From Xanthomonas campestris pv. campestris str. ATCC 33913 (GTDB taxonomy: Bacteria; Pseudomonadota; Gammaproteobacteria; Xanthomonadales; Xanthomonadaceae), in assembly GCF_000007145.1 (NCBI RefSeq), contig NC_003902.1, positions 5,003,426-5,035,425 on the forward strand: a DNA stretch of 32,000 nt, written 5' to 3'. The notes under the pieces were generated by a model that did no database searches, was not told the DNA's origin, and worked only from the letters and a program-made list of their open reading frames with translations. Positions 1-21,586 of the stretch are shown piece by piece (position 1 is the stretch's first letter; every line of letters starts with the position of its first letter). A program made the position numbers and the translations under genes.

Positions 1-1227
1 AGGCTGAGCGATAGCATCGCTCGTCTTCATGTGCGCCATCAGATGAGCGGGGTTATCCAATGCGCCCTGGACCACAAACACGTTCTCGCCCTTCCCCACG
101 GCAGCTGTTTGATTGCTCAACACTACATGGTCGATCTGCGTTAGTCCGTTCGCTTTGGCCAAGTGGGCGCTGCTGGCCGCCAGCCGGGCACTATTGTCGT
201 CATAGTCGCGGCCAAGGCTCTGCTCCAGGCGGCGCACGTCCTCTTCGGCCTGACGATGTAGTGGGTCTTGCGAGGGCACGGCGCCCTGGAGATTGCGATA
301 GGTTGGCGTGGCGTTGTGATCTTCCCGATTCAGCTCGGGCGGGAAGGTACGCGGAGCAATCTGCTGCAATGTCGCGGGGTCGATGTCACCTGTTTGAGAG
401 AGGCCGTGCGCCTGCTGGTAGTTGATCACTGCTGCCTGCATCGACAGGCGGTAGACACCATCCTCCTGAAGTGGCTGATTGTCTGCGCCGCGATAGCCTT
501 CCGCATTCAAGGTTTGCTGCACCTTTTGAACCATCTCGGACGATCCACCGATGCGGATTGTTCCGTCATCCACGAACGGCCTGGGTTCAATGCCACGATC
601 GCGCCTTTCTGCATCGATGGACAGGCGACCGCTGACCAGATCGCCTACATAGTTCTCGTAGTGTTGGTAGTAGCGACTGTCCACCTCCATATGCACGTGA
701 ATTGCTCCTGTTGCCTGCTTGCCTTGCACGCCTAACGCCTGGCCGTACTCGACCTGATCGCCAGCCTTTACGTGGAGTGGCGACATATGCCGGACACGGA
801 GGATGACATCACCACCTTCCCGATCCAGCACATCTACCAACCCCTTTGACGTATTGACCGTACCAACAACGCCGGCAACGGGCGACGGAACATCCAGCGA
901 CCTTGAAGAAGGCCCAGAAGGCAACCTGGAATCCTCAAGCATGAAGTCCTTCTTCAACAATACCTGATCAGGACGAAGGCCATAGTCCTTACCTGCCTTG
1001 GAGACTTCGATCTCCTGGATTTCGCCACCAACCACTCCCAGCGTCCGACCTGCTTGACCGCCCACGACTTTGCCGTCGACCAGATGAGCATCACTGTTGC
1101 TTTTGGGATGGTGCGTAACTAACTCGTCGAAGTTTCCGACAGCCTCGTTGCGCTCACCTTTTTCCGCATCCCACTCAAGTTGAATGACGCGATAGGGGGT
1201 CTGCTGTTTAACATCCTGTGCTGCCAT
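1..1227 (-). CDS. Partial CDS (C-terminus lies beyond the left edge): putative T4SS-delivered antibacterial effector (X-Tfe-like) with an M23/LytM-like region, a peptidoglycan-binding domain and an XVIPCD-like C-terminal region
   Basis: Absent from the supplied ORF track because no stop codon lies inside the window. Checked by hand: plus-strand triplets in register 1-3, 4-6 ... 1225-1227 contain no TTA, CTA or TCA. That gives 409 open codons on the minus strand from the ATG at 1227, with AAGGAG 7 nt upstream. Translation starts MAAQDVKQQTPYRVIQLEW. It contains GDQVEYGQALGVQGKQATGAIHVHMEV (M23-type HxH context). It contains LNAEGYRGADNQPLQEDGVYRLSMQAAVINYQQAHGLSQTGDIDPATLQQI (PG_binding_1-like). 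The visible end, ARLAASSAHLAKANGLTQIDHVVLSNQTAAVGKGENVFVVQGALDNPAHLMAHMKTSDAI, resembles the Xanthomonas VirD4-interacting conserved domain. Confidence 0.7.
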   Translation of the reverse strand, partial: MAAQDVKQQTPYRVIQLEWDAEKGERNEAVGNFDELVTHHPKSNSDAHLVDGKVVGGQAGRTLGVVGGEIQEIEVSKAGKDYGLRPDQVLLKKDFMLEDSRLPSGPSSRSLDVPSPVAGVVGTVNTSKGLVDVLDREGGDVILRVRHMSPLHVKAGDQVEYGQALGVQGKQATGAIHVHMEVDSRYYQHYENYVGDLVSGRLSIDAERRDRGIEPRPFVDDGTIRIGGSSEMVQKVQQTLNAEGYRGADNQPLQEDGVYRLSMQAAVINYQQAHGLSQTGDIDPATLQQIAPRTFPPELNREDHNATPTYRNLQGAVPSQDPLHRQAEEDVRRLEQSLGRDYDDNSARLAASSAHLAKANGLTQIDHVVLSNQTAAVGKGENVFVVQGALDNPAHLMAHMKTSDAIAQP

Positions 1228-1241
1228 CTCCCAACTCCTTG

Positions 1242-1799
1242 TCAGTCCCTGAGATTAATCGCCCGTGTCAGGTACCAACAGCCCTGACGCTTCTCGAATA
1301 CGTATGTATCTACTTCGTATTCCATACCGAAATTTACTTTACGACCTTCGTTAGCCGTCAGCTCTACGGAGACATGAGAGCCAACCTCACTTTTTGGCTC
1401 AGGCTTGCTTCTTCCTGCGGCTAGTTGATCGAATACTTTCGCATCCTTGAAGTACCGGTAGGGGAATAATTCAAGGCGAGAGGGGCCGGTTCGCTTGGAG
1501 ATATGCGTATCTGGTGATGACTCAGTTTCTTCTTCAACCGTATGAGTCGGAACCTCGTACTCCAACGGGTCGTTAGTGAAACGGCGACGTGCGTCGTCAT
1601 TGGCAACATCGGCATATCGCTGAAGAAACGTGTTGAAATCCTTCGAGGGACAAGCGACCGGAGCTTGCTCCTTGTGCTGACTCGGATGCTCGCGCTGCGA
1701 CGCAACTGCCTGCGCAGGCGAAGTACATCCCGCCGTCGAGACACAAATCACTGCAGCAAAGGCGAGATATGGATTCAGGTGATAGGCGCCCATACTCAT
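1242..1799 (-). CDS. Lipoprotein, putative cognate immunity protein (X-Tfi-like) encoded immediately upstream of the effector
   Basis: 185-aa ORF with a strong AAGGAG about 8 nt upstream of the ATG at 1799. The N-terminus MSMGAYHLNPYLAFAAVICVSTAGC has a hydrophobic core and a lipobox-like TAGC. The stop at 1242 lies 14 nt before the effector ATG, and the effector's Shine-Dalgarno sits in the gene's last codons, so the two form an operon. GC content is lower than in the rest of the window. Confidence 0.7.
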   Translation of the reverse strand: MSMGAYHLNPYLAFAAVICVSTAGCTSPAQAVASQREHPSQHKEQAPVACPSKDFNTFLQRYADVANDDARRRFTNDPLEYEVPTHTVEEETESSPDTHISKRTGPSRLELFPYRYFKDAKVFDQLAAGRSKPEPKSEVGSHVSVELTANEGRKVNFGMEYEVDTYVFEKRQGCWYLTRAINLRD

Positions 1800-2063
1800 T
1801 ATTTCTCCTTACTTCATGGCGGAGGCATCTGAAAGCCCCCCTTGGCGGGGCCGCAAGACGACCTCAGCTTACCCATAGCTCAAGCTGTTTGGTGATCTTC
1901 CAGCCTTTTTCTGTGCGCGCAAGGAAGTAGCGGGTAACGCGGTGAGGTTGTGTTTTTTCAGGGTATGAGGGGCGCTCATATTCGGCCTACCATTGTGCGG
2001 CCTTGACCTCCCGTACATCCCCAACCCGCCATCCTCGCCCCAGCCTCAACGGGAGAACACACG

Positions 2064-2396
2064 ATGATGAAGTGGATGGGCACCGCGCTGGCCGCGGCAT
2101 TGCTGGTGAGCGGTTGCGCCAAGGTGGAGGGCGAGAAGTTCGTCGGCCACTGGGTCAACGTGCAGACGCAGGAAGAGACGATGGACATCGAGCGCAATGG
2201 CGAGACCTTCATGGTCCGCAGCACCACGCCGAAGTTCTTCAGCCGCACCCCCAAGACCGAGAGCTACCCGGCGGTCTACAAGGACGGGGCGCTGCAGGTC
2301 AGCAACGATGGCGAAACGGTGAACTTCGCCATCGATGAGGCCAACGGCCACCTCAATACCGGCGGCGAGCAGTACCAGCGCGTGCCGACCAAGTAA
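2064..2396 (+). CDS. Small lipoprotein of unknown function
   Basis: 110-aa ORF. The signal peptide carries a canonical lipobox (MMKWMGTALAAALLVSGC). GGGAGA lies upstream of the ATG. A hairpin plus T-run terminator follows. Confidence 0.75.
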   Translation: MMKWMGTALAAALLVSGCAKVEGEKFVGHWVNVQTQEETMDIERNGETFMVRSTTPKFFSRTPKTESYPAVYKDGALQVSNDGETVNFAIDEANGHLNTGGEQYQRVPTK

Positions 2397-2928: not shown

Positions 2929-3219
2929 TCAAGCCGCCAGCCGCTTGATCCGTGACGGCAGATCGCCCAGCGCGCGGTGCGCCTCTTCGAGCTCGTAATC
3001 GGCTTGCAGGCCCAGCCAGCAGCGCTCGGTCGTGCCGAACGCTGCAGCCAGACGCACGGCGGTGTCGGCGGTGATGCCACGCTTGCCCAGCACGATCTCG
3101 TTGATGCGGCGCGGCGGTACATCGGTGGCCCGCGCCAGTGCGTTCTGGCTGATGCCCATCGGCTCGAGGAACTCCTCAAGCAGGATTTCGCCGGGGTGGA
3201 TGTTGGGTAGGACTGTCAT
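2929..3219 (-). CDS. higA: HigA-family antitoxin / XRE-type HTH DNA-binding protein (apparently orphan)
   Basis: MTVLPNIHPGEILLEEFLEPMGISQNALARATDVPPRRINEIVLGKRGITADTAVRLAAAFGTTERCWLGLQADYELEEA is the typical HigA/VapI-type antidote sequence. I prefer the start at 3219 (MTVLPN) over the ORF-track start at 3246. Confidence 0.85.
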   Translation of the reverse strand: MTVLPNIHPGEILLEEFLEPMGISQNALARATDVPPRRINEIVLGKRGITADTAVRLAAAFGTTERCWLGLQADYELEEAHRALGDLPSRIKRLAA

Positions 3220-3293
3220 GGACAGATGCCTCTTGCTCAGTGGCAATGATCGCCGCGATTTTAATGATTGGTGTCGCAGCTATTGCTGTCGGC

Positions 3294-3324
3294 GGCAGTT
3301 ATTCGAAAGTTTCGAATAACTGCC
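3294..3324. promoter_or_regulatory. Perfect 31-nt palindrome (15-bp arms, 1-nt centre) upstream of higA; candidate operator or hairpin
   Basis: GGCAGTTATTCGAAA-G-TTTCGAATAACTGCC, verified base by base. It is AT-rich relative to its surroundings and is followed by TTTT on the plus strand. It sits between the recD stop (3388) and the higA start (3219). Confidence 0.5.
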
Positions 3325-13436: not shown

Positions 13437-16400
13437 TCAGTATTTCTTTTCCAGGTTGATCATCCAGGTCTGATCGTTGCCGCTGTCGCCGTCGGTGATG
13501 CCGCGGTATTCCAGCCGCGTCGACAAGCCTTGTTCGGTCAGCAAGGCCGCACCGATACCGACCATCAGGCGGTTGCGATCGAACGCGTTCTGACCGGTGC
13601 GATACACCGGGCCACCGATGATGTCGGCATAGCCCAGCGTTGCGTCGCCGCGGCCCTGGAAGTCGCGCTGATACTCCACGCGGACCTGCGGGGTCAGGCG
13701 TCCCCAGGCCACATCGCGGCGCCATTCCAGGCGCAGGCCCAGGTTGCCGGTGGTGGTGGCCACATCCATGTCGTCATAGCGCAGCGCGAACGGCGCGATG
13801 CCATCTTCGACGTAGCCATCCAGGGTTGCCCGCGCCACATCCACCCGCGCATACGGGGTGATCTGCAGATTGCCGCGTTGCAGGTCTGCACCGCTGGACA
13901 GCGAGGCGATCCACTGCTTGCCGTCGCGGCTGCCTTCGGCCATCGAAGCGTCGTCGGTGACGAAACGACGCAGGTCGTAAGACAGCAACTGATAACCCAC
14001 CAGGGTGTCGAAGAAAAACGCCTTGCCCGGATGGAAGCTGGCATACAGCGCCATGGTGTAGGCGGTGGCCTTGGAGTGGCTGCCGTTCCTGCCTACATCG
14101 CTGTCGTCGCGGCCCCAACCCAGGCCCGCACCCACTGCCAGCGACGGCGCCAGCCGGTAGTCCGCACCCACGCTCAAGCCATCGGTCTGGAAGTCCACGC
14201 CGTTGGTGTTGGCCTGCCTGTCCAGGCTGCCGGAGCGGATCGCACCGCCCACCCACAGGCCCAGGTCGCCCTGGCCCTGCGCACCGCCGGTGCCGCCGGT
14301 CGCCATCGCTGGCGCATCGCGGAACTCGTTGTCGGCATCCTGGGTGTCCGGGCTGCACGGCTGCGCGCTGATGCCGCGATCGGCCTGGCGGCAATGCGAG
14401 GTCGGCTGGAAGGTCACCGCATTGCTCAGCGTGCTGCCGCCACGGTGGGTGGCTTCCAGACGGCGCTGGAAGTTGTCGATCTGCGCCTTGGCGAAGCGCC
14501 GCGTCGACTCGGACTGCGCATCGATCAGGCCACGCACTTCCGCATCCACACTCGGGTCGCGCCGCGGCGCCACGGTGAAGGTCACGCTTGCCGCCGCCGA
14601 GGTGGCGAACGCGTTGGACAAGGTGAACTGCACGGTGGCCTGACCGACGAAAGCCGGGTTCGCCACGAAGGTCAGCATGAAGCTGGGTGAAGAAGCCTGC
14701 GCAGTGGCCGCAGGCACAAAGCCGGAAGTGCGCGCCGCTGCCGCCGCTGCACCACCCACCTGGGTGATGGTGGCGGTCCCGGCCGAGGCCGGCAGCACTG
14801 CGACCACCGCGGCGGCCACGAACGGCCCGCCGGTGGCATCACGGGTCAGATCGACCTGCGAGGCCGCACCCGGCACCGCCTCGGCGGTGACCGACACGGC
14901 GATCGGGCGCGCATTGACGGCGATGGTCACCGTTGCTGCGGCCGAGGTTCCACCGCTGCCGGTGACCGTGTAGCTCACCACATCGGTGCCGACAAACCCG
15001 GCCGCCGGCGTGTACACCAGCTCCAGCCCATTGACCGCGGCGGTGCCGTTGGTCGGCGCGGTCGCAATGGCGATCGCAGTGATGTTGCCGGTGTCGTTGG
15101 CGGTCACTGGCACCGTCACCGCCGCATCGCTCATGGTCGCTGCGGTATCGGCCACGGCAACCGGGGCCGCCGTGCTCACCGTGAAGGTGTACGCCTGCGT
15201 CGCAGTAGCGTTGCCGGCATCGGCCACCGCGATGGTGAAGGACGTGCTGCCTTCGGCGGTGGGCGTGCCTGACAACACGCCGTTGCTCGCCAGCGTCAGT
15301 CCGGCCGGCAAGGTGCCGCTGGCAACGCTGTAGGTGTACGGCGCAACACCACCGGTGGCGGTCAACACCTGGCTGTACGGCGTACCGCGCACCGCTGGCG
15401 GCAGCGTGGGTTGACTAGGTACCAACGTGGCGCCGGCAATGCTCAGCGTGTAGCTCTGGTTGGCCTGCGCGGCCGGGCTGGGCGTGCTGTCGGTGACAGT
15501 CAGGGTGAAGTTGAACGTGCCAGACACCGTTGGCGTACCGCTGAGCGTGCCGGTCGCAGCGTCCAGCACCACACCGCTCGGCAATGCGCCCGCGGTCAGT
15601 GCATAGCTGTACGGCGCAGTGCCGCCGGTCACCGGCGAAATCGCCGCCGTGTAGGCCTGCCCCGCCGTACCGGCCGGCAAGTTGCTGGCCGGCAAGGCCA
15701 GGTTCGGGCTGGCCACCGTCAGTACATAGGCCTGCGACGCGGTGAAGTTGTTCGCGTCGGTCGCCGTCACGGTGAAATTGAAGCCGCCTTCCACCGTCGG
15801 GTTACCGGACAGCGTGCCGTTGCTGGCCAAGGTGAGGCCAGCTGGTGCACTGCCTGCGTTCACCTCATAGGTGTACGGCGCGGTGCCGCCGCTGGCGGTC
15901 AGTACTTGGCTGTAGGCCGTGCCGCGGGTTGCAGCCGGTAGCGCAGTGGGCGCGACCACGATGACAGGTGCCGCAATGCTCAGCGTGTAACTCTGGCTGG
16001 CCTGCGCAGCCGGGCTGGGCGTGCTGTCGGTGACAGTCAGGGTGAAGTTGAACGTGCCAGACAGGGTCGGCATGCCGCTGAGGCCGCCGGTCGCCGTATC
16101 GAGGACAACGCCGTTGGGCAATACGCCGGCGCTCAGTGCATAGCTGTAGGGCGCGGTGCCGCCGGTGGCAGGAGCAATCGTCGCCGCGTAGGCCTGCCCC
16201 GCCGTACCTGCCGGCAAGCTGCTCGCCGGCAACGCCAGGTTCGGGCCGGCCACCGTCACTGCATAGGCCTGCGAAGCGGTGAAGGTGTTTGCATCGGTCG
16301 CAGTCACGGTGAAGTTGAAGCTGCCTTCCACCGTCGCGGTGCCGGACAGCGTGCCGTTGCTGGCCAGGGTGAGGCCAGCCGGCACGTTGCCCGCGCTGAC

Positions 16401-18665
16401 GGCATACGTGTATGGCGCGGTTCCGCCGCTGGCGCTGAGCGTCTGGCTGTAGACCGTGCCGCGCGTGGCCGCCGGCAGCGCAGTGGGCGCGACCACGATG
16501 ACAGGTGCTGCGATGGTCAGCGTGTAGCTGCGGCTGGCCTGCGCCGCCGGGCTGGGCGTGCTGTCGGACACGGTCAGGGTGAAGTTGAACGTGCCCGCCA
16601 CGGTCGGCGTGCCGCTGAGTCCACCGGTCGCCACGTCCACGACCACACCCGTCGGCAACGCACCGGCGGTCAGTGCATAGCTGTAAGGCGCGGTGCCGCC
16701 CGTGGCGGGCGTGATCGACGCGGAGTACGCCTGCCCGGCGGTACCTGCCGGCAAGCTGCTTGCCGGCAACACCAGGTTCGGGCCAGCCACGGTCAGGCTG
16801 TAGGCCTGATTGGCGGTGAAGCTCCCCGCATCGGTGGCGGTCACGGTGAAGTTGAAGCTGCCTTCCACCGTTGCGGTACCCGACAGCGTGCCGTTGCTGG
16901 CCAGGGTGAGGCCGGCCGGCAATGCGCCACTGGCGAGTGCGTAGGTGTACGGCGCGGTGCCGCCACTGGCGCTCAGCGTCTGGCTGTAGGCAGTGCCACG
17001 CGTGGCGGCCGGCAGCGTGGACGGCGCAACCACAATCGGCGGCGCGGCGATGTTCAAGGTGTAACCGCGTGTGCCCTGCGAGGGCGTGCCGCTGGTGCTG
17101 TCGGTGGCGGTCACGCTGAAGGCAAAGCTGCCCACGCTGCCGGGGGTGCCGGTCAAGGCGCCGCTGCTGCCATTGAGCGTGATGCCCGCCGGCAGGGCGC
17201 CGGCAGTGACGGCGTAGGTATACGGCGGAATGCCGCCGGTCGCTGGGTTGAGCGCCCCCGAATAAGCCTGGCCTGCAGTGCCGGCCGGCAAGCTGGTCGC
17301 CGGCAAGGTCACCGTCGCGCCGGCCACGGTCAACGTGTAGGCACGGTTGCCGCTGGTGGGACTGCCGCCGCTATCGGTAGCGGTGGCGGTGAAGTTGAAG
17401 CTGCCGGTGGCCGTGGGCGTGCCGGACAGCACGCCGGCAGCGCTCAGGGTCAGCCCGGCCGGCAACGCACCGGCAGTGACGGCGAAGCTGTACGGCGCGG
17501 TGCCGCCGCTGGCGCTCAGGTTCTGGCTGTAGGCGCTGCCCGCGGTCGCCGCCGGCAGCGATGCCGGCCCGACCGTCACCACCACGTCGTCGTTGAGGAT
17601 GGTGCCGGCGCCGGTGGCGCGCGCGATGCTTGCGTTGCTGGCACCGGACAGGCCGACGCTGAAGGTCTCGTTGGGTTCGAGCGCGGTATCGCCGTTGACG
17701 GTGATGGCCACGCCTTGCGCGGTGGTGCCGGGCGCGAACGTCAGGGTGCCGGAACGCGCGACATAGTCGCTGCCGGCGGTGGCAGTACCGTCGGCGCTGG
17801 CGTAATTGACCGACACGGTCTGGCCGCTGGCCGCGCTCAGGGTCACCGTGAAGGTGGCCGTGGTGGTGCCGCTGTTGCCTTCGTTGACGCTGACGTCGTC
17901 GATCGACAGCGAAGGCAGCGCATCGTCGTTGACGATGGTGCCCTGGCCTTGGGCGTCGCTGACCCCGGCGCCGCTGACGTTGCTGACGTTGACGAAGAAG
18001 GTCTCGTTGGGTTCGCTGAGCGTGTCGCCGTTGACCAGCACGGTGAAAGTCGCGCTGCTACTACCAGCGGGGATGGTCTGCCCGGTGAGGCTGGAGGCGA
18101 CGTAGTCCACGCCTGCGATGGCTGAGCCATCGGCGGTGGCGATATCGAAGCTGGCGCCGCCGGCACCGGCCGGCTGGCTGAGCGAGACGGTGAAGGTGGC
18201 ATTGCTCGTGCCGGCATTGCCTTCATTCACCGAGACGTCGTTGATCGACAGCGTCGGCTGGCTCGGGGTGATGGTGATGTTGACAGTGATGATGTCGCTC
18301 CGGCCATCTTCTAGCGGGAACGTATCGCTGGTGGCGTTGTCACCGTTATGGGTGTAGGTGACGATCTGCGTGCCCTGGGCGCCGCTTGGGTTGGGAACGA
18401 CGATCGTGCCGTGCGCAGGTTGCACACCGTTCCAGCCAACGCCGATATCGTCTACCCCCGTGCCATCGCAGGTCGTTACGTCGATCTGTACCGAACCGCC
18501 CTGCACCACAGTGGCGTTCAAGGTCGGGCAGTAGGTCGAGGCTTGCGCCATCGCCCAGCCTGGTGCCAAGAGCGTCATCGCGAACAGGACAAACATCACG
18601 ACCAAACGTGCGCGGCCGCCGGTGGCGTCCGCTAGAAACCTACGCTGCTTGTTCACTGTCCACAC
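13437..18665 (-). CDS. Large autotransporter adhesin-like protein (1742 aa): signal peptide, 2 Calx-beta domains, 9 He_PIG-type Ig-like repeats, a cadherin/Ig-like region and a C-terminal autotransporter beta-barrel
   Basis: The signal peptide is ...LFAMTLLAPGWAMA-QA. The Calx-beta signatures are AGVDYVASSLTGQTIPAGSSSATFTVLVNGDTLSEPNETF and AGSDYVARSGTLTFAPGTTAQGVAITVNGDTALEPNETF. Repeats follow the pattern LPAGTAGQAYS..GGTAPYSYAL.AGALP.G..L....G.LSGTPT..G.FNFT. The C-terminal roughly 280 aa are beta-barrel-like (GLWVGGAIRSGSLDRQ...GADYRL...) and end in an aromatic residue (KKY). Confidence 0.9.
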   Translation of the reverse strand: MWTVNKQRRFLADATGGRARLVVMFVLFAMTLLAPGWAMAQASTYCPTLNATVVQGGSVQIDVTTCDGTGVDDIGVGWNGVQPAHGTIVVPNPSGAQGTQIVTYTHNGDNATSDTFPLEDGRSDIITVNITITPSQPTLSINDVSVNEGNAGTSNATFTVSLSQPAGAGGASFDIATADGSAIAGVDYVASSLTGQTIPAGSSSATFTVLVNGDTLSEPNETFFVNVSNVSGAGVSDAQGQGTIVNDDALPSLSIDDVSVNEGNSGTTTATFTVTLSAASGQTVSVNYASADGTATAGSDYVARSGTLTFAPGTTAQGVAITVNGDTALEPNETFSVGLSGASNASIARATGAGTILNDDVVVTVGPASLPAATAGSAYSQNLSASGGTAPYSFAVTAGALPAGLTLSAAGVLSGTPTATGSFNFTATATDSGGSPTSGNRAYTLTVAGATVTLPATSLPAGTAGQAYSGALNPATGGIPPYTYAVTAGALPAGITLNGSSGALTGTPGSVGSFAFSVTATDSTSGTPSQGTRGYTLNIAAPPIVVAPSTLPAATRGTAYSQTLSASGGTAPYTYALASGALPAGLTLASNGTLSGTATVEGSFNFTVTATDAGSFTANQAYSLTVAGPNLVLPASSLPAGTAGQAYSASITPATGGTAPYSYALTAGALPTGVVVDVATGGLSGTPTVAGTFNFTLTVSDSTPSPAAQASRSYTLTIAAPVIVVAPTALPAATRGTVYSQTLSASGGTAPYTYAVSAGNVPAGLTLASNGTLSGTATVEGSFNFTVTATDANTFTASQAYAVTVAGPNLALPASSLPAGTAGQAYAATIAPATGGTAPYSYALSAGVLPNGVVLDTATGGLSGMPTLSGTFNFTLTVTDSTPSPAAQASQSYTLSIAAPVIVVAPTALPAATRGTAYSQVLTASGGTAPYTYEVNAGSAPAGLTLASNGTLSGNPTVEGGFNFTVTATDANNFTASQAYVLTVASPNLALPASNLPAGTAGQAYTAAISPVTGGTAPYSYALTAGALPSGVVLDAATGTLSGTPTVSGTFNFTLTVTDSTPSPAAQANQSYTLSIAGATLVPSQPTLPPAVRGTPYSQVLTATGGVAPYTYSVASGTLPAGLTLASNGVLSGTPTAEGSTSFTIAVADAGNATATQAYTFTVSTAAPVAVADTAATMSDAAVTVPVTANDTGNITAIAIATAPTNGTAAVNGLELVYTPAAGFVGTDVVSYTVTGSGGTSAAATVTIAVNARPIAVSVTAEAVPGAASQVDLTRDATGGPFVAAAVVAVLPASAGTATITQVGGAAAAAARTSGFVPAATAQASSPSFMLTFVANPAFVGQATVQFTLSNAFATSAAASVTFTVAPRRDPSVDAEVRGLIDAQSESTRRFAKAQIDNFQRRLEATHRGGSTLSNAVTFQPTSHCRQADRGISAQPCSPDTQDADNEFRDAPAMATGGTGGAQGQGDLGLWVGGAIRSGSLDRQANTNGVDFQTDGLSVGADYRLAPSLAVGAGLGWGRDDSDVGRNGSHSKATAYTMALYASFHPGKAFFFDTLVGYQLLSYDLRRFVTDDASMAEGSRDGKQWIASLSSGADLQRGNLQITPYARVDVARATLDGYVEDGIAPFALRYDDMDVATTTGNLGLRLEWRRDVAWGRLTPQVRVEYQRDFQGRGDATLGYADIIGGPVYRTGQNAFDRNRLMVGIGAALLTEQGLSTRLEYRGITDGDSGNDQTWMINLEKKY
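15180..17575. repeat. Tandem DNA repeats encoding the Ig-like domain array; the central copies form a two-domain unit of about 537-540 bp
   Basis: GATGACAGGTGC[C/T]GC[A/G]ATG recurs at 15960 and 16497. Related junctions occur near 15430 and 17037. Long stretches between the copies are near-identical by eye. Confidence 0.8.
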
Positions 18666-18912
18666 CCCTGGAGCGCGCCATCCCCGGCGCCGGCAACGAT
18701 CCTCGTGCCTGAAGGCAACGCCGCCCTAGAGATTTTCCCCTTCGGCATTGCGAGCGTATTTGAACAGGAACTGACTGACGAATAAACAATGAAAACTTAA
18801 TACTTCATTCCAGTTCTAGATATTCCAGGCTTGCTCAATCAGAACTGGACAAGTATCTGTACGAATGACCCCGACACGCGGTCGGTGTTGCACTTACGGG
18901 AAGGAAATCCGC
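18666..18912. promoter_or_regulatory. AT-rich divergent intergenic region between the autotransporter gene and the tail-collar cassette
   Basis: This 247-bp gap is markedly less GC-rich than its flanks (for example AATAAACAATGAAAACTTAATACTTCATTCCAGTTCTAGATATTCC). Its position implies divergent promoters. No individual -35/-10 box could be called with confidence. Confidence 0.4.
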
Positions 18913-19458
18913 ATGAGCGAGTTTTTCATGGGTCAGATCATGATGACCGGCTTCGTTTTCGCGCCAAAATATTTCGCGCAGTGCAATGGGCAGTTGCTGC
19001 CGGTCAACCAGAACCAGGCGCTCTTCAGCTTGCTTGGTACGCGTTTCGGCGGCAATGGAAGTACCACCTTCGCGCTGCCGGACATGCGCGGGCGCACCCC
19101 GGTCGGCTTTGCGCCATCTGCAGATCCGGCCTGGCAACCTTCGCCGCTACCGATGGGCCAGAACTCCGGCGCCGAGAACGTTTCGCTGCTGCCCGACAAC
19201 CTGCCAGCGCACAACCATTCGCTGGAGGGTTCCAGCGCTGCGGGCAACAACCGTAGTCCCAGCGGCCGCTCTTTCGGCACCAATGCCAGCACGACCGGTC
19301 CGGCCACCGCGCTGTATGCGGCGCCGGGACCCCTGGTGGCAATGAATCCAGCAACCGTGGCTCAGGCCGGTGGCAGCCAGCCGCATCCGAACCTGCAGCC
19401 GTACACCACGCTCAATTTCTGCATCGCGCTGTCCGGCATCTTTCCCTCGCGCAGCTAG
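18913..19458 (+). CDS. Phage-tail-collar-domain protein (MdpB/COG4675-like), paralog 1
   Basis: MSEFFMGQIMMTGFVFAPKYFAQCNGQLLPVNQNQALFSLLGTRFGGNGSTTFALPDMRGRTPVG ... PNLQPYTTLNFCIALSGIFPSRS. GGAAGGAAA lies upstream of the ATG at 18913. The ORF-track start at 18865 adds a non-homologous extension. Confidence 0.85.
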   Translation: MSEFFMGQIMMTGFVFAPKYFAQCNGQLLPVNQNQALFSLLGTRFGGNGSTTFALPDMRGRTPVGFAPSADPAWQPSPLPMGQNSGAENVSLLPDNLPAHNHSLEGSSAAGNNRSPSGRSFGTNASTTGPATALYAAPGPLVAMNPATVAQAGGSQPHPNLQPYTTLNFCIALSGIFPSRS

Positions 19459-19532
19459 CGCGGCGCCTGCATTTCATAAACGCAGCGTGCCACCGCCGCG
19501 GGGCAGCGCGCCCATCGACCAGAAAGGACACC

Positions 19533-20060
19533 ATGGCCACTCCATTCATCGGCGAGATCCGCATGTTCGGCTTCGGGCGTACTCCGCAAGGCTGGCAGGC
19601 CTGCGACGGCAGCCTGTTATCGATCTCCGACTACGAGGTGCTGTTCATGCTGATCGGCAACACCTACGGCGGCGATGGGCAGAACACCTTCGCGGTACCG
19701 GATCTGCGCGGGCGCGTGCCGCTGCATCAAGGCCAGGGCCCGGGCCTGAGCAACTACGTGATCGCCCAGACGGCTGGCACCGAGTCAGTTGCACTGACCG
19801 GACTGCAGTTGCCGGCGCACACACATACGTTGGTGGCCACAACCGCTGCCGCGACGGCCACCGCGCCGTCCGGCCTATTGCCTGGCACAGTCACCGGCGA
19901 CGTGTTCTACGCGACCGACACCACCGGTGCCACGGCAGCGCCGATGGCCACGCAGTCGACCACGATCACCGGCGGTGGCCTGGCGCACGAGAACACCATG
20001 CCGACCTTGACGGTGCAGTACTGCATTTCCACTGTCGGCATTTTCCCGCAGCAGAGCTGA
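19533..20060 (+). CDS. Phage-tail-collar-domain protein (MdpB/COG4675-like), paralog 2
   Basis: MATPFIGEIRMFGFGRTPQGWQACDGSLLSISDYEVLFMLIGNTYGGDGQNTFAVPDLRGRVPL ... ENTMPTLTVQYCISTVGIFPQQS. AAAGGA lies upstream. Confidence 0.85.
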   Translation: MATPFIGEIRMFGFGRTPQGWQACDGSLLSISDYEVLFMLIGNTYGGDGQNTFAVPDLRGRVPLHQGQGPGLSNYVIAQTAGTESVALTGLQLPAHTHTLVATTAAATATAPSGLLPGTVTGDVFYATDTTGATAAPMATQSTTITGGGLAHENTMPTLTVQYCISTVGIFPQQS

Positions 20061-20120
20061 GCCCATTCACCGCGCCGCGCTCGGTGCGGTGCCTGCACGT
20101 TCTATAGAAGGACCGCGTTC

Positions 20121-20660
20121 ATGACCGAACCCTATATCGGCGAAATCCAGCTGTTCGGCTTCGATTTCAATCCCGTCGGCTGGGCGTTGTGCAACGGCGC
20201 CACGCTGCCGCTGCAGCAGAACACCACGCTGTACTCGCTGCTGGGCATCGTCTATGGCGGTAACGGCACGACCACGTTTCAACTGCCTAACTTCTGTGGA
20301 CGCGCCGGCTGCGAGCAGGGGCAGGGCCCGGGACTGAGCAGCCGGCAGTTGGGCAATAGCTTCGGCACGGCCGCCGTGAGCCTGTTGCCCACGCAGATCC
20401 CGCCGCACCAGCATGGCGTCAGCGCGTTCACGCAACCGGATTCGACCAAGAAAAGCGGCACGCCCGCCAATGGCGCAGCGCTTTCAGCGCTGGGCGGCAG
20501 CACAGCACGCCCGTTCGTGACGGTGACACAACCCGACACCCAGTTCTCGCCGGCGGCGCTGCTGCCAACCGGCAACGGCCTGGCCCACCAGAACCAGCAA
20601 CCGTATCTGGCGGTGAATTTCTGCATTGCGTTGTCTGGCACCTATCCACAGTTCGATTGA
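20121..20660 (+). CDS. Phage-tail-collar-domain protein (MdpB/COG4675-like), paralog 3
   Basis: MTEPYIGEIQLFGFDFNPVGWALCNGATLPLQQNTTLYSLLGIVYGGNGTTTFQLPNFCGR ... QNQQPYLAVNFCIALSGTYPQFD. GAAGGA lies upstream. Confidence 0.85.
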   Translation: MTEPYIGEIQLFGFDFNPVGWALCNGATLPLQQNTTLYSLLGIVYGGNGTTTFQLPNFCGRAGCEQGQGPGLSSRQLGNSFGTAAVSLLPTQIPPHQHGVSAFTQPDSTKKSGTPANGAALSALGGSTARPFVTVTQPDTQFSPAALLPTGNGLAHQNQQPYLAVNFCIALSGTYPQFD

Positions 20661-20664
20661 CGCC

Positions 20665-21237
20665 ATGCAGGGCGAAGCTTCCGCGACTCCAGCGAGCGTG
20701 CATCCGCAAGCAGAATGCGAGCGCATGCCTGCACTGCTTGCGCACCGCATCACACTGCGCGCCGAACACGACACCGATGTGCCTTGGCTACGCAATCTCT
20801 ATGCCAGCGCACGCAGCGACGAACTGGCGCACGTCCCCTGGCCGGAGACGACCAAGCGCGCGTTTGTGGATCAGCAGTTCGCGCTGCAGCGCACGCATTA
20901 TCGGCAGCATTATCGCGACGCCGACTTTCTGATCGTACAGACGCCGGACGAACGCATCGGCCGGCTGTATCTTCAACGCGCAGCCGTGCAGCACGTGCTG
21001 GTCGATATCAGTTTGTTACCGCATTGGCGCGGCAGGGGCGTGGGCACCGCATTGATCATGCATGCGCAGGCGTTGGCGCAGGCCGCAGGCTGTGGCGTGG
21101 CATTGCACGTCTTTCATGCCAATCCTGCGGCGCGCCGGCTTTATACGCGCCTGGGCTTTCTCGCAGGCGACGCCAGCAGTACCCACCTTGCGATGCACTG
21201 GCAGCCCGCCGAGAGGGCGGCCACGCCGCTCAGTTGA
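20665..21237 (+). CDS. GNAT-family N-acetyltransferase
   Basis: The acetyl-CoA-binding core is LVDISLLPHWRGRGVGTALIMHAQALAQAAGCGVALHVFHANPAARRLYTRLGF. The ATG at 20665 lies 4 nt after the stop of paralog 3. An alternative start at 20725 (MPALLAHRITL) would give about 170 aa. Confidence 0.8.
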   Translation: MQGEASATPASVHPQAECERMPALLAHRITLRAEHDTDVPWLRNLYASARSDELAHVPWPETTKRAFVDQQFALQRTHYRQHYRDADFLIVQTPDERIGRLYLQRAAVQHVLVDISLLPHWRGRGVGTALIMHAQALAQAAGCGVALHVFHANPAARRLYTRLGFLAGDASSTHLAMHWQPAERAATPLS

Positions 21238-21586
21238 ATATCGCCTGATACAAAAAGCCGTCGCGCTCGCGTGCTACCGGCACAAGAAATACCCCGACCT
21301 CGCCCAGCCGGCTGTGCCGCAGCTGATAGATCTGCTGCGGAAACAGAAACGCCGAACTGTTGCGGAACAGCAGCGAGAACGGCGCCCGGTGCACCGCCTG
21401 CGTGGTCGGAAGCGGGCGTGCCTCGACCAGCACGAAGGGAATCTCGCCGTCGTTCAAGGCAGCAGAGAAGTTGTCGTTGACGCTTCCTGCGAAGTGTTCC
21501 AGGGTCAGCAAATCCATCTGCACGCTCGGGCTGGCTAAGGCGGCTCCATCATCTACGTGCAGGCATACCTCACACAACGTAGCCAT
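21230..21586 (-). CDS. Small conserved-looking hypothetical protein, convergent with the GNAT gene
   Basis: The sequence is MATLCEV...MDLLTLEHFAGSVNDNFSAALNDGEIPFVLVEARPLPTTQAVHRAPFSLLFRNSSAFLFPQQIYQLRHSRLGEVGVFLVPVARERDGFLYQAIFN. The pattern FSLLF...Q.IY.L.H..LG...FLVP......YQAIFN looks like a conserved family of unknown function. The start is uncertain: 21586, or 21517 (MDLLTLEHF). The upstream part of the ORF-track version (to 21757) looks non-coding. Confidence 0.6.
   Translation of the reverse strand: MATLCEVCLHVDDGAALASPSVQMDLLTLEHFAGSVNDNFSAALNDGEIPFVLVEARPLPTTQAVHRAPFSLLFRNSSAFLFPQQIYQLRHSRLGEVGVFLVPVARERDGFLYQAIFN

Follow-up and report, generated by a model that had tools for sequence, protein, structure and literature searches.

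Among type IV secretion system (T4SS) effectors of the Xanthomonadales (X-Tfes), whose catalogued domain types include M23, two effector-immunity pairs exemplify the known kind that is closest to the locus described here: XAC2609 with its immunity protein (X-Tfi) XAC2610 in Xanthomonas citri, and Smlt3024 with Smlt3025 in Stenotrophomonas maltophilia. The published operon layout places the X-Tfi gene before the X-Tfe gene (PMC7777525), and a glutamine-rich tail is a described trait of the C-terminal XVIPCD secretion signal (PMC8740702). Here we describe a two-gene cassette at the left edge of a 32,000-nucleotide stretch of the X. campestris pv. campestris (Xcc) ATCC 33913 chromosome (NC_003902.1, forward-strand positions 5,003,426 to 5,035,425; hereafter the window), which is very likely an X-Tfe/X-Tfi module of this organism. 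It has in common with the known pairs an ααβββ XVIPCD, VirD4-contact residues, a Gln-rich tail, a peptidoglycan-targeting N-terminal enzyme domain, an almost abutting upstream gene for an immunity lipoprotein and a location away from the vir locus (PMC8740702, PMC6536674, PMC7777525). An internal PG_binding_1 domain is shared with XAC2609. Unlike XAC2609, which carries a GH19 domain, and Smlt3024, of unknown fold, the catalytic domain encoded in the window has a non-canonical M23/LytM fold. In sequence, fold and layout the cassette has what defines an X-Tfe/X-Tfi pair, with the canonical M23 motif as the only departure. The features of the cassette are as follows.

Positions 1 to 1227, minus strand: effector gene (candidate X-Tfe), codons 1-409 of 449, recognised by its open frame, three domain matches and an identical full-length gene elsewhere.
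Positions 1 to 267, minus strand: folded part of the XVIPCD, residues 321-409 (PF20410, AlphaFold2 (AF2), Foldseek), with a Gln-rich 40-residue tail past the edge.
Positions 271 to 348, minus strand: disordered, length-variable linker, residues 294-319 (predicted confidence, pLDDT, <50; gap-rich and poorly conserved in the family alignment).
Positions 361 to 540, minus strand: PG_binding_1, residues 230-289 (PF01471, AF2, PDB sequence matches).
Positions 583 to 1197, minus strand: non-canonical LytM/M23-fold catalytic domain, residues ~11-215 (AF2, Foldseek, conservation).
Positions 1111-1113 (H39), 946-948 (D94), 787-789 (H147), 697-699 (H177) and 691-693 (H179), minus strand: proposed active-site residues.
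Positions 688 to 1227, minus strand: segment dropped by short gene calls (annotations starting at Met180).
Positions 1228 to 1241, minus strand: intergenic spacer of 14 nt with the effector Shine-Dalgarno site AAGGAG at 1240-1235 (from the sequence).
Positions 1242 to 1799, minus strand: candidate immunity gene, an X-Tfi-like lipoprotein of 185 aa (open reading frame (ORF), family alignment, AF2).
Positions 1725 to 1799, minus strand: immunity signal peptide and lipobox STAG-C25 (family alignment, hydrophobicity).
Positions 1245 to 1652, minus strand: folded α+β domain of the immunity protein, residues 50-185 (AF2 pLDDT >90), preceded by a flexible linker to about residue 45.
Positions 1805 to 1810, minus strand: Shine-Dalgarno site AAGGAG for the immunity gene (from the sequence).
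Positions 1 to 2000: islet of low GC content and atypical codon usage, comprising the cassette and its upstream untranslated region (GC and GC at third codon positions, GC3).

An earlier note, made from the DNA letters of the window, had seen an XVIPCD-like stretch at the effector C-terminus, and profile, sequence and fold comparisons all uphold this. PF20410 (X-Tfes_XVIPCD) matches residues 321-409 at E=6.6e-21, scoring 75.2 bits where the cutoff is 24.9, even with the domain cut by the window edge. In the AF2 model the ααβββ elements follow in order, with helices at 322-337 and 344-359 and strands at 367-370, 382-387 and 396-401, and Foldseek matches this region to 7mu9, the nuclear magnetic resonance structure of the XAC2609 XVIPCD (E=3e-4, target TM-score 0.63). 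Over the same region the effector family profile matches the PDB entries 9p3h (E=4e-32), 7r6s (E=4e-13) and 7mu9 (E=3.7e-8). The resemblance to Smlt3024 is confined to this domain, as the full-length test against its family NF050128 was negative (81 bits against a cutoff of 800, with the match over the shared XVIPCD only). Five XAC2609 residues are important in VirD4 binding, D363, F375, V377, D383 and P384 (PMC8740702), and four of these are kept in the window protein, where D366, F384, V386 and P393 align with D363, F375, V377 and P384. Beyond the edge, the nucleotide-identical gene of two complete genomes continues into a Gln-rich tail with a basic and hydrophobic end, HRMV (QRQQQAQQQSQQQDQQQLSAPQHRMV, then stop).

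On the minus strand the effector frame begins at 1227 and stays open as far as the window edge, a total of 409 sense codons without a stop in the direct translation of the window, and the chance of such an open stretch at the local base composition is about 3e-7. The earlier note had reported this frame and had also remarked that the supplied ORF list shows antisense ORFs only. Both statements are correct: the list holds plus-strand ORFs alone over 60-967, and the effector gene is absent from it because ORFs running off the window edge are omitted. The peptides quoted in that note (GAIHVHMEV, ARLAASSAHLAKANGLTQIDHVVLS and GENVFVVQGALDNPAH) are all present in the translation. In complete Xcc genomes the full-length protein has 449 aa, and the window is without the last 40 residues only. 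It is nucleotide-identical to CP155978.1 (L004) and CP066933.1 (L008) over the cassette and the next 2 kb, and its effector is identical to the full-length gene of the complete genomes L002, L003, L004 and L008. These identical genes supply the full C-terminus that lies to the left of the window, its 40 residues reading VEQSLSQLQTLSETQRQQQAQQQSQQQDQQQLSAPQHRMV in L003 and L004. All eight complete Xcc genomes examined carry the 449-aa ORF unbroken, and across the first 409 residues they show 0-6 amino acid differences.

At the hydrophilic N-terminus of the effector the Kyte-Doolittle 15-residue average does not rise above 0.03, and no signal peptide was found there. Absence of a hydrophobic N-terminus is expected for a cytoplasmic T4SS substrate. 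Public gene calls differ in where the protein begins. Some Xcc genomes annotate it as 270-272 aa, with a start at Met180 inside the HxH motif, and this call is frequent in X. campestris records, with one variant found on 489 contigs (the P0020/P0337 cluster). We considered whether these '270-aa' calls represent pseudogenes and reject this, as the long ORF is intact there and only the choice of start differs. Many public X. campestris annotations of the effector consequently omit the whole catalytic domain.

Immediately upstream lies the gene of the candidate immunity protein, which the earlier note had described as a lipoprotein gene separated from the effector by 14 nt and arranged in the X-Tfi-then-X-Tfe order. 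The lipoprotein signals, the gap and the order are all borne out. The immunity TGA stop occupies 1244-1242 and is followed by exactly 14 nt (1241-1228) before the effector ATG at 1227; this gap and the Shine-Dalgarno sites fit the published layout. The leader MSMGAYHLNPYLAFAAVICVSTAG precedes C25, with an N-terminal Kyte-Doolittle 15-residue average of 1.94, and an (A/S/T)(G/A)C lipobox is found in most of 39 immunity homologues. C50 is nearly invariant and C174 invariant in the family alignment, which suggests a periplasmic disulfide between them. As the earlier note had also stated, the protein has no nameable family: no match was found in Pfam, NCBIfam or PADLOC, and a PADLOC scan of effector and immunity protein as a pair gave no matches. 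Nearly all of the 51 detectable homologues come from Xanthomonas, and their records bear the names 'hypothetical protein' or 'Lipoprotein'. Exact copies of the 185-aa protein are present in numerous assemblies, complete genomes included, with index entries in 1301 blocks. Foldseek returned only a weak resemblance to NTF2-like α+β cones (E ~3e-3, TM-score 0.3-0.45), a likeness of predicted structure that is suggestive at most. For some X-Tfis, cytosolic isoforms made from internal starts have been proposed (PMC6536674). Such an isoform is unlikely here because, apart from Met1 and Met3, the sole methionine is residue 159. When the DNA upstream of the immunity gene was scanned for sigma-70 promoters, nothing rose above chance.

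The AF2 model of the effector, built from 65 homologues, has a mean pLDDT of 88. Its N-terminal part is a β-rich domain spanning residues 11-215, with pLDDT >90 throughout. Its LytM/M23-like character, proposed in the earlier note, is supported at the level of fold by Foldseek matches to M23 enzymes with probability >=0.98 (lysostaphin, EnpA, LytU, DipM and truncated LytM), the chains of ShyA scoring 0.93-1.00. The peptidoglycan-binding segment named in the same note is likewise substantiated: PF01471 matches with 48.6 bits against a cutoff of 23 (E=9.1e-13), AF2 shows a helical bundle at 231-290, and the region matches the peptidoglycan-binding domains of 1lbu and 9h68 in PDB sequence comparisons. 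With canonical M23 enzymes (lysostaphin, LytM, EnpA, ShyA/MepM) the effector has in common the LytM β-fold, the HxH motif, here H177-V-H179, and the upstream catalytic His, here H147; as with them, its expected substrate is peptidoglycan. Unlike them it is without HxxxD and carries in addition an approximately 100-residue β-rich N-terminal extension bearing the motifs HHP (H39-H40-P41) and KDF (containing D94). H147, H177-x-H179, HHP and D94 in KDF are invariant across 42-65 homologues. A search with residues 1-215 against 1.84 billion representatives returned 197 relatives only (E<=1e-3). In some the domain is N-terminal in proteins of 300-860 aa, in others it is embedded in proteins of 2,000-4,700 aa. 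Counted over 40 diverse relatives at 30-60% identity, D94 is conserved in 39, while H39, H40, H147, H177 and H179 are each conserved in 38; two outliers have lost every candidate catalytic residue together. We also considered D112 as the Asp of a degenerate SxxxD/HxxxD remnant and reject it, given that it is conserved in 6 of the 40 relatives, is not conserved outside the X-Tfe clade and is replaced by Pro in the phage protein discussed below.

The top Foldseek match of the effector is the baseplate hub of cyanophage A-1(L), gp15 (8kea; E=1.2e-8 over 196 columns), which the family profile also matches by sequence (E=1e-10). The peptidase domain of the hub, Ser736-Trp899, lyses Anabaena cells (PMC10966104), and the substitutions H768A and D801A abolish this lysis (PMC10966104 source data). 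Alignment with the hub domain sequence, taken from the Fig. S8f file of PMC10966104, places effector H39, D94, H147, H177 and H179 opposite hub H768, D801, H845, H877 and H879; the alignment in that figure already holds a Xanthomonas member of the effector family. The lytic hub therefore has the same non-canonical residue set as the effector. It differs in being only ~24% identical, in belonging to a phage tail machine, in having neither a peptidoglycan-binding domain nor an XVIPCD, and in carrying W at the position of effector H40 and P at that of D112. Because its candidate residues are conserved and align with those of a mutagenised lytic hub, the effector domain is probably an active, non-canonical M23-type hydrolase, in which a split H39...D94 pair would replace HxxxD. 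The earlier note had regarded the catalytic status as uncertain for want of the HxxxD motif. The motif is indeed absent, but the doubt is largely resolved, as conservation and the hub mutants favour an active non-canonical site.

The same non-canonical M23-like domain also lies mid-protein in giants of 2,000-4,700 aa (P0260, P0270, P0274, P0300 and others). These host proteins may be polymorphic toxins, or else internal or ejectosome proteins of phages, and a weak match to the pre-ejectosome of cyanophage A4 (9k2v) may be compared with them.

Around 400 homologues share the three-domain architecture of the effector, their named sources being Xanthomonas, Lysobacter, Stenotrophomonas and Luteimonas, and NCBI names members of the family 'XVIPCD domain-containing protein'. 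Some homologues also carry a precomputed PF26482 assignment. A scan of species-representative genomes found the family in 62 loci, 60 of which have Lysobacterales-type names (Xanthomonas, Stenotrophomonas, Lysobacter, Luteimonas, Pseudoxanthomonas, Marilutibacter and Thermomonas). The two exceptions are metagenome-assembled genomes labelled 'beta proteobacterium' and 'Chitinophaga', the latter probably mis-binned. This range is the taxonomic range of the X-T4SS (PMC6536674). At 16 of the 62 loci, chiefly those with the closest effectors, the gene directly upstream of the effector belongs to the immunity family of the window. A second, unrelated upstream family, which does not occur in the window, is found in 42 of the 62 and precedes most of the distant effectors. 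It comprises secreted proteins of ~130 aa with a signal peptide, two conserved Cys and the pattern YPxxLxGxW...C.LP.N.DSD...RC, often in 2-3 tandem copies (for example L017:3504-3947, L026:2523-3923 and L048:2675-3952, within L016-L070). Both families stand in tandem at one locus, in Stenotrophomonas sp. 278 (L018), and one or the other is present at 57 of the 62. Members of the immunity and effector families have longest-contig sizes in common between their two hit tables, which likewise suggests shared contigs.

Within this family some effectors are broken. Frameshifted or split copies occur in X. citri pv. fuscans, X. arboricola pv. juglandis, S. maltophilia EA1, X. melonis and Xanthomonas sp. 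Leaf131 (L009-L011:3481-4810; L015, L029, L064, L066 and L070-L072). The immunity gene beside them is intact where checked. A broken effector with an intact immunity gene, or 'orphan immunity', probably also accounts for what has been published on XAC4264 of X. citri 306. This 279-aa protein interacts with VirD4 and has two immunity genes upstream, XAC4263 and XAC4262; it is described as possibly truncated, or as put out of action by a deletion or frameshift affecting the N-terminal domain. The X. citri pv. fuscans homologues are 82% identical to the window protein, are annotated as 269 aa and have a frameshift in the N-terminal domain. XAC4264 is probably the X. citri counterpart of the window effector, a pairing made by length and description only and not confirmed by a locus tag in the cluster names. 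The window gene, unlike XAC4264, is unbroken and retains its catalytic domain in full.

The effector is probably not the Xcc homologue of Smlt0332 given in Sgro 2019 Table 3, as Smlt0332 is described as without any Pfam domain while the window protein has PG_binding_1. The Xcc loci given there, XC_3909 and xcc-b100_0624, presumably also do not lie beside recBCD near the chromosome end, to judge from their gene numbers. We found no publication on the window effector, nor on an XVIPCD metallopeptidase effector together with its immunity protein. The pair is of the known X-Tfe/X-Tfi kind and has not itself been characterised before.

From these features we infer the secretion, bond specificity and toxicity of the effector and the protection afforded by the lipoprotein. 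The effector, having no signal peptide, would be synthesised in the cytoplasm, and its C-terminal XVIPCD would be recognised by the all-alpha domain of VirD4. On contact, the chromosomal bactericidal X-T4SS would inject it into an adjacent Gram-negative cell and so into the periplasm, where PG_binding_1 could dock it on the sacculus and the LytM-fold domain could cut peptide cross-links, leading to wall weakening and lysis. In this enzyme H39 of HHP and D94 of KDF may work with H147 and H177-x-H179 in place of HxxxD. The periplasmic lipoprotein, probably disulfide-bonded, would be translated from the same mRNA as the effector. It may bind and block effector molecules that arrive in the producer periplasm by leakage or by injection from a sister cell. 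The effector-immunity pair was probably gained horizontally.

Several observations weigh against this reading of the cassette. No virB or virD4 gene lies in the 32-kb window. The listing of Xcc B100, 8004 and ATCC33913 as carriers of the X-T4SS and X-Tfes by Sgro et al. 2019 (PMC6536674) speaks in favour of the reading, but the vir locus is described as fragmented in 8004 and ATCC33913 (PMC6536674), so that deployment in a given strain is uncertain. The fifth VirD4-contact position differs, XAC2609 D383 corresponding to N392 with D391 adjacent. In the catalytic domain, the Pfam M23 model PF01551 scores 28.4 bits, just under its cutoff of 28.7 and over profile positions 15-88 only, and the canonical HxxxD is absent from the window protein, from 65 homologues and from 40 distant relatives. 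Certain family members do pass PF01551, for example P0031 at 34.2 bits. The hub assay records release of Anabaena cell contents, not bond cleavage, and H39 and D94 are placed at the metal site by alignment, not by geometry. In the lipoprotein, the Thr at position -3 of the lipobox is atypical and the n-region has no Lys or Arg, and its immunity role is read solely from position, localisation signals and conserved co-occurrence.

These points bear on three other accounts of the cassette. A genuine X-Tfe/X-Tfi pair by descent might be undeployed or decaying, either because the X-T4SS is defective or because the effector is becoming a pseudogene, with the lipoprotein kept mainly against the effectors of other Xanthomonadales. 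The fragmented vir locus of Xcc 8004 and ATCC33913 fits such a history, as do the truncated or frameshifted state described for XAC4264 and the lineages, such as X. citri pv. fuscans, in which a broken effector adjoins an intact immunity gene. We nonetheless consider it unlikely, given that the ORF is intact to the window edge and full length in all eight complete Xcc genomes, that the proposed catalytic residues are preserved without exception and the VirD4-contact residues for the most part, and that the gene has a strong Shine-Dalgarno site. The LytM-fold domain could instead be catalytically dead, comparable to EnvC, NlpD and SpoIIQ, and act through peptidoglycan binding or deregulation of amidases in the target. 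The LytM domain of SpoIIQ is degenerate, and the family profile matches it too (3uz0, E=4e-4); HxxxD is missing family-wide, Pfam M23 stays under its cutoff, and two distant relatives are without any candidate catalytic residue. However, H39, D94, H147, H177 and H179 are near-universal at 30-60% identity and the degenerate members lose all of them jointly, while the nearest relative of solved structure shares this residue set, lyses cells and is inactivated by H768A or D801A. A dead domain is therefore very improbable.

It is also conceivable that the protein is not a secretion effector but a housekeeping or prophage-derived hydrolase, such as the remnant of an endolysin or virion lysin, beside an unrelated lipoprotein gene. 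The nearest solved relative of the catalytic domain is indeed a phage baseplate hub, related domains occur in giant proteins, and phage-tail-collar genes lie 17 kb away in the window. A housekeeping hydrolase of the periplasm would need a signal peptide and the effector has none. It is fused to a genuine XVIPCD that includes a Gln-rich tail. Neither in the window nor in the eight genomes do genes for phage structural proteins, holins or integrases adjoin it, the pairing with the upstream gene is conserved across genera, and the range of the effector family matches that of the X-T4SS. Taken together, this makes a housekeeping or prophage origin hardly plausible, and we retain the interpretation of the cassette as an X-Tfe/X-Tfi module.

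The cassette stands out from its surroundings in composition, as the earlier note had observed in describing a lower-GC islet. Windowed GC and the deviation in GC3 agree with that description. Bases 1-2000 have a GC content of 55.6% against 68.2% in the rest of the window. Per 200 nt the values are 0.49-0.63 in the islet against ~0.65-0.75 beyond roughly 2400. GC3 is 0.63 for the effector and 0.52 for the immunity gene, compared with 0.80-0.92 for recD, recB, recC, mla, rmuC and others. The flanks of the cassette vary among Xcc strains, with ParD or a helix-turn-helix (HTH) gene on the recD side and SIR2, a ParA-like ATPase and an Mrr nuclease on the far side, which is consistent with an insertion hot-spot. 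The remaining genes of the window encode a 110-aa lipoprotein, a HigA-like HTH protein, RecD, RecB and RecC, an autotransporter, three phage-tail-collar proteins, MlaFEDCA, RmuC and a member of the zinc-binding alcohol dehydrogenase family. Those with features of their own are listed below.

Positions 2064 to 2396, plus strand: lipoprotein of 110 aa, lipobox LVSG-C, GC3 0.92, no Pfam or PADLOC family.
Positions 2929 to 3246, minus strand: HigA-like HTH_3 protein of 105 aa, with no obvious partner toxin ORF.
Positions 13437 to 18665, minus strand: autotransporter of 1742 aa with nine He_PIG Ig-like repeats, Calx-beta, Big_9 and a C-terminal β-barrel.
Positions 18865 to 20660, plus strand: three tandem Phage Tail Collar paralogues of 197, 175 and 179 aa (E 1e-23 to 1e-26).
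Positions 20715 to 21248, plus strand: ORF of 177 aa without family, with inverted codon-position GC (GC1 0.73, GC2 0.70, GC3 0.49).

The gene of the 110-aa lipoprotein is divergent from the cassette, has native-like GC3 and is kept at this place in 8 of 8 Xcc genomes. A perfect palindrome with a 14-bp stem and a T-run (3294-3324) adjoins the HigA-like gene. Other Xcc strains have a ParD gene at this spot in place of the HigA-like gene, so that the stretch from recD to the cassette is a mosaic. Past the left edge, genes for a SIR2_2 protein, a ParA/CbiA-like ATPase and an Mrr-type restriction nuclease lie directly downstream of the effector (L004/L008:12179-15250). The SIR2_2 and ParA/CbiA-like genes are lacking in other strains, and the type III secretion system effector gene xopL is found a few kb further. 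This arrangement suggests that the region downstream of the effector is a defence and competition island. The tail-collar genes start in a GC trough (55% at 18501-19000) just past the autotransporter gene, with no other phage genes nearby. The 177-aa ORF that follows them is probably not the real reading frame there.

X-T4SS effectors decide contact-dependent fights among plant-associated and clinical Xanthomonadales, and only a handful of them have been studied. The newest aspects of the present pair are its non-canonical catalytic motif and the existence of two unrelated immunity families. We would give an even chance to a wider proposal, in which these effectors form a distinct, undescribed LytM-fold clade, marked by a split H(HP)...(K)D(F) on an N-terminal β-extension and represented also in phage hubs and giant proteins, that is neutralised in Xanthomonadales by two unrelated periplasmic families, the window lipoprotein being a new kind of M23 inhibitor. 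For an M23-like enzyme without HxxxD, the residues H39, D94, H147, H177 and H179 offer a concrete active-site hypothesis. The window pair preserves intact a module that, as we judge from XAC4264, has probably been disrupted in the model organism X. citri, and for this reason it is the natural candidate for characterising this effector class. Its immunity lipoprotein belongs to a family without known relatives, which could represent a new type of proteinaceous M23 inhibitor.

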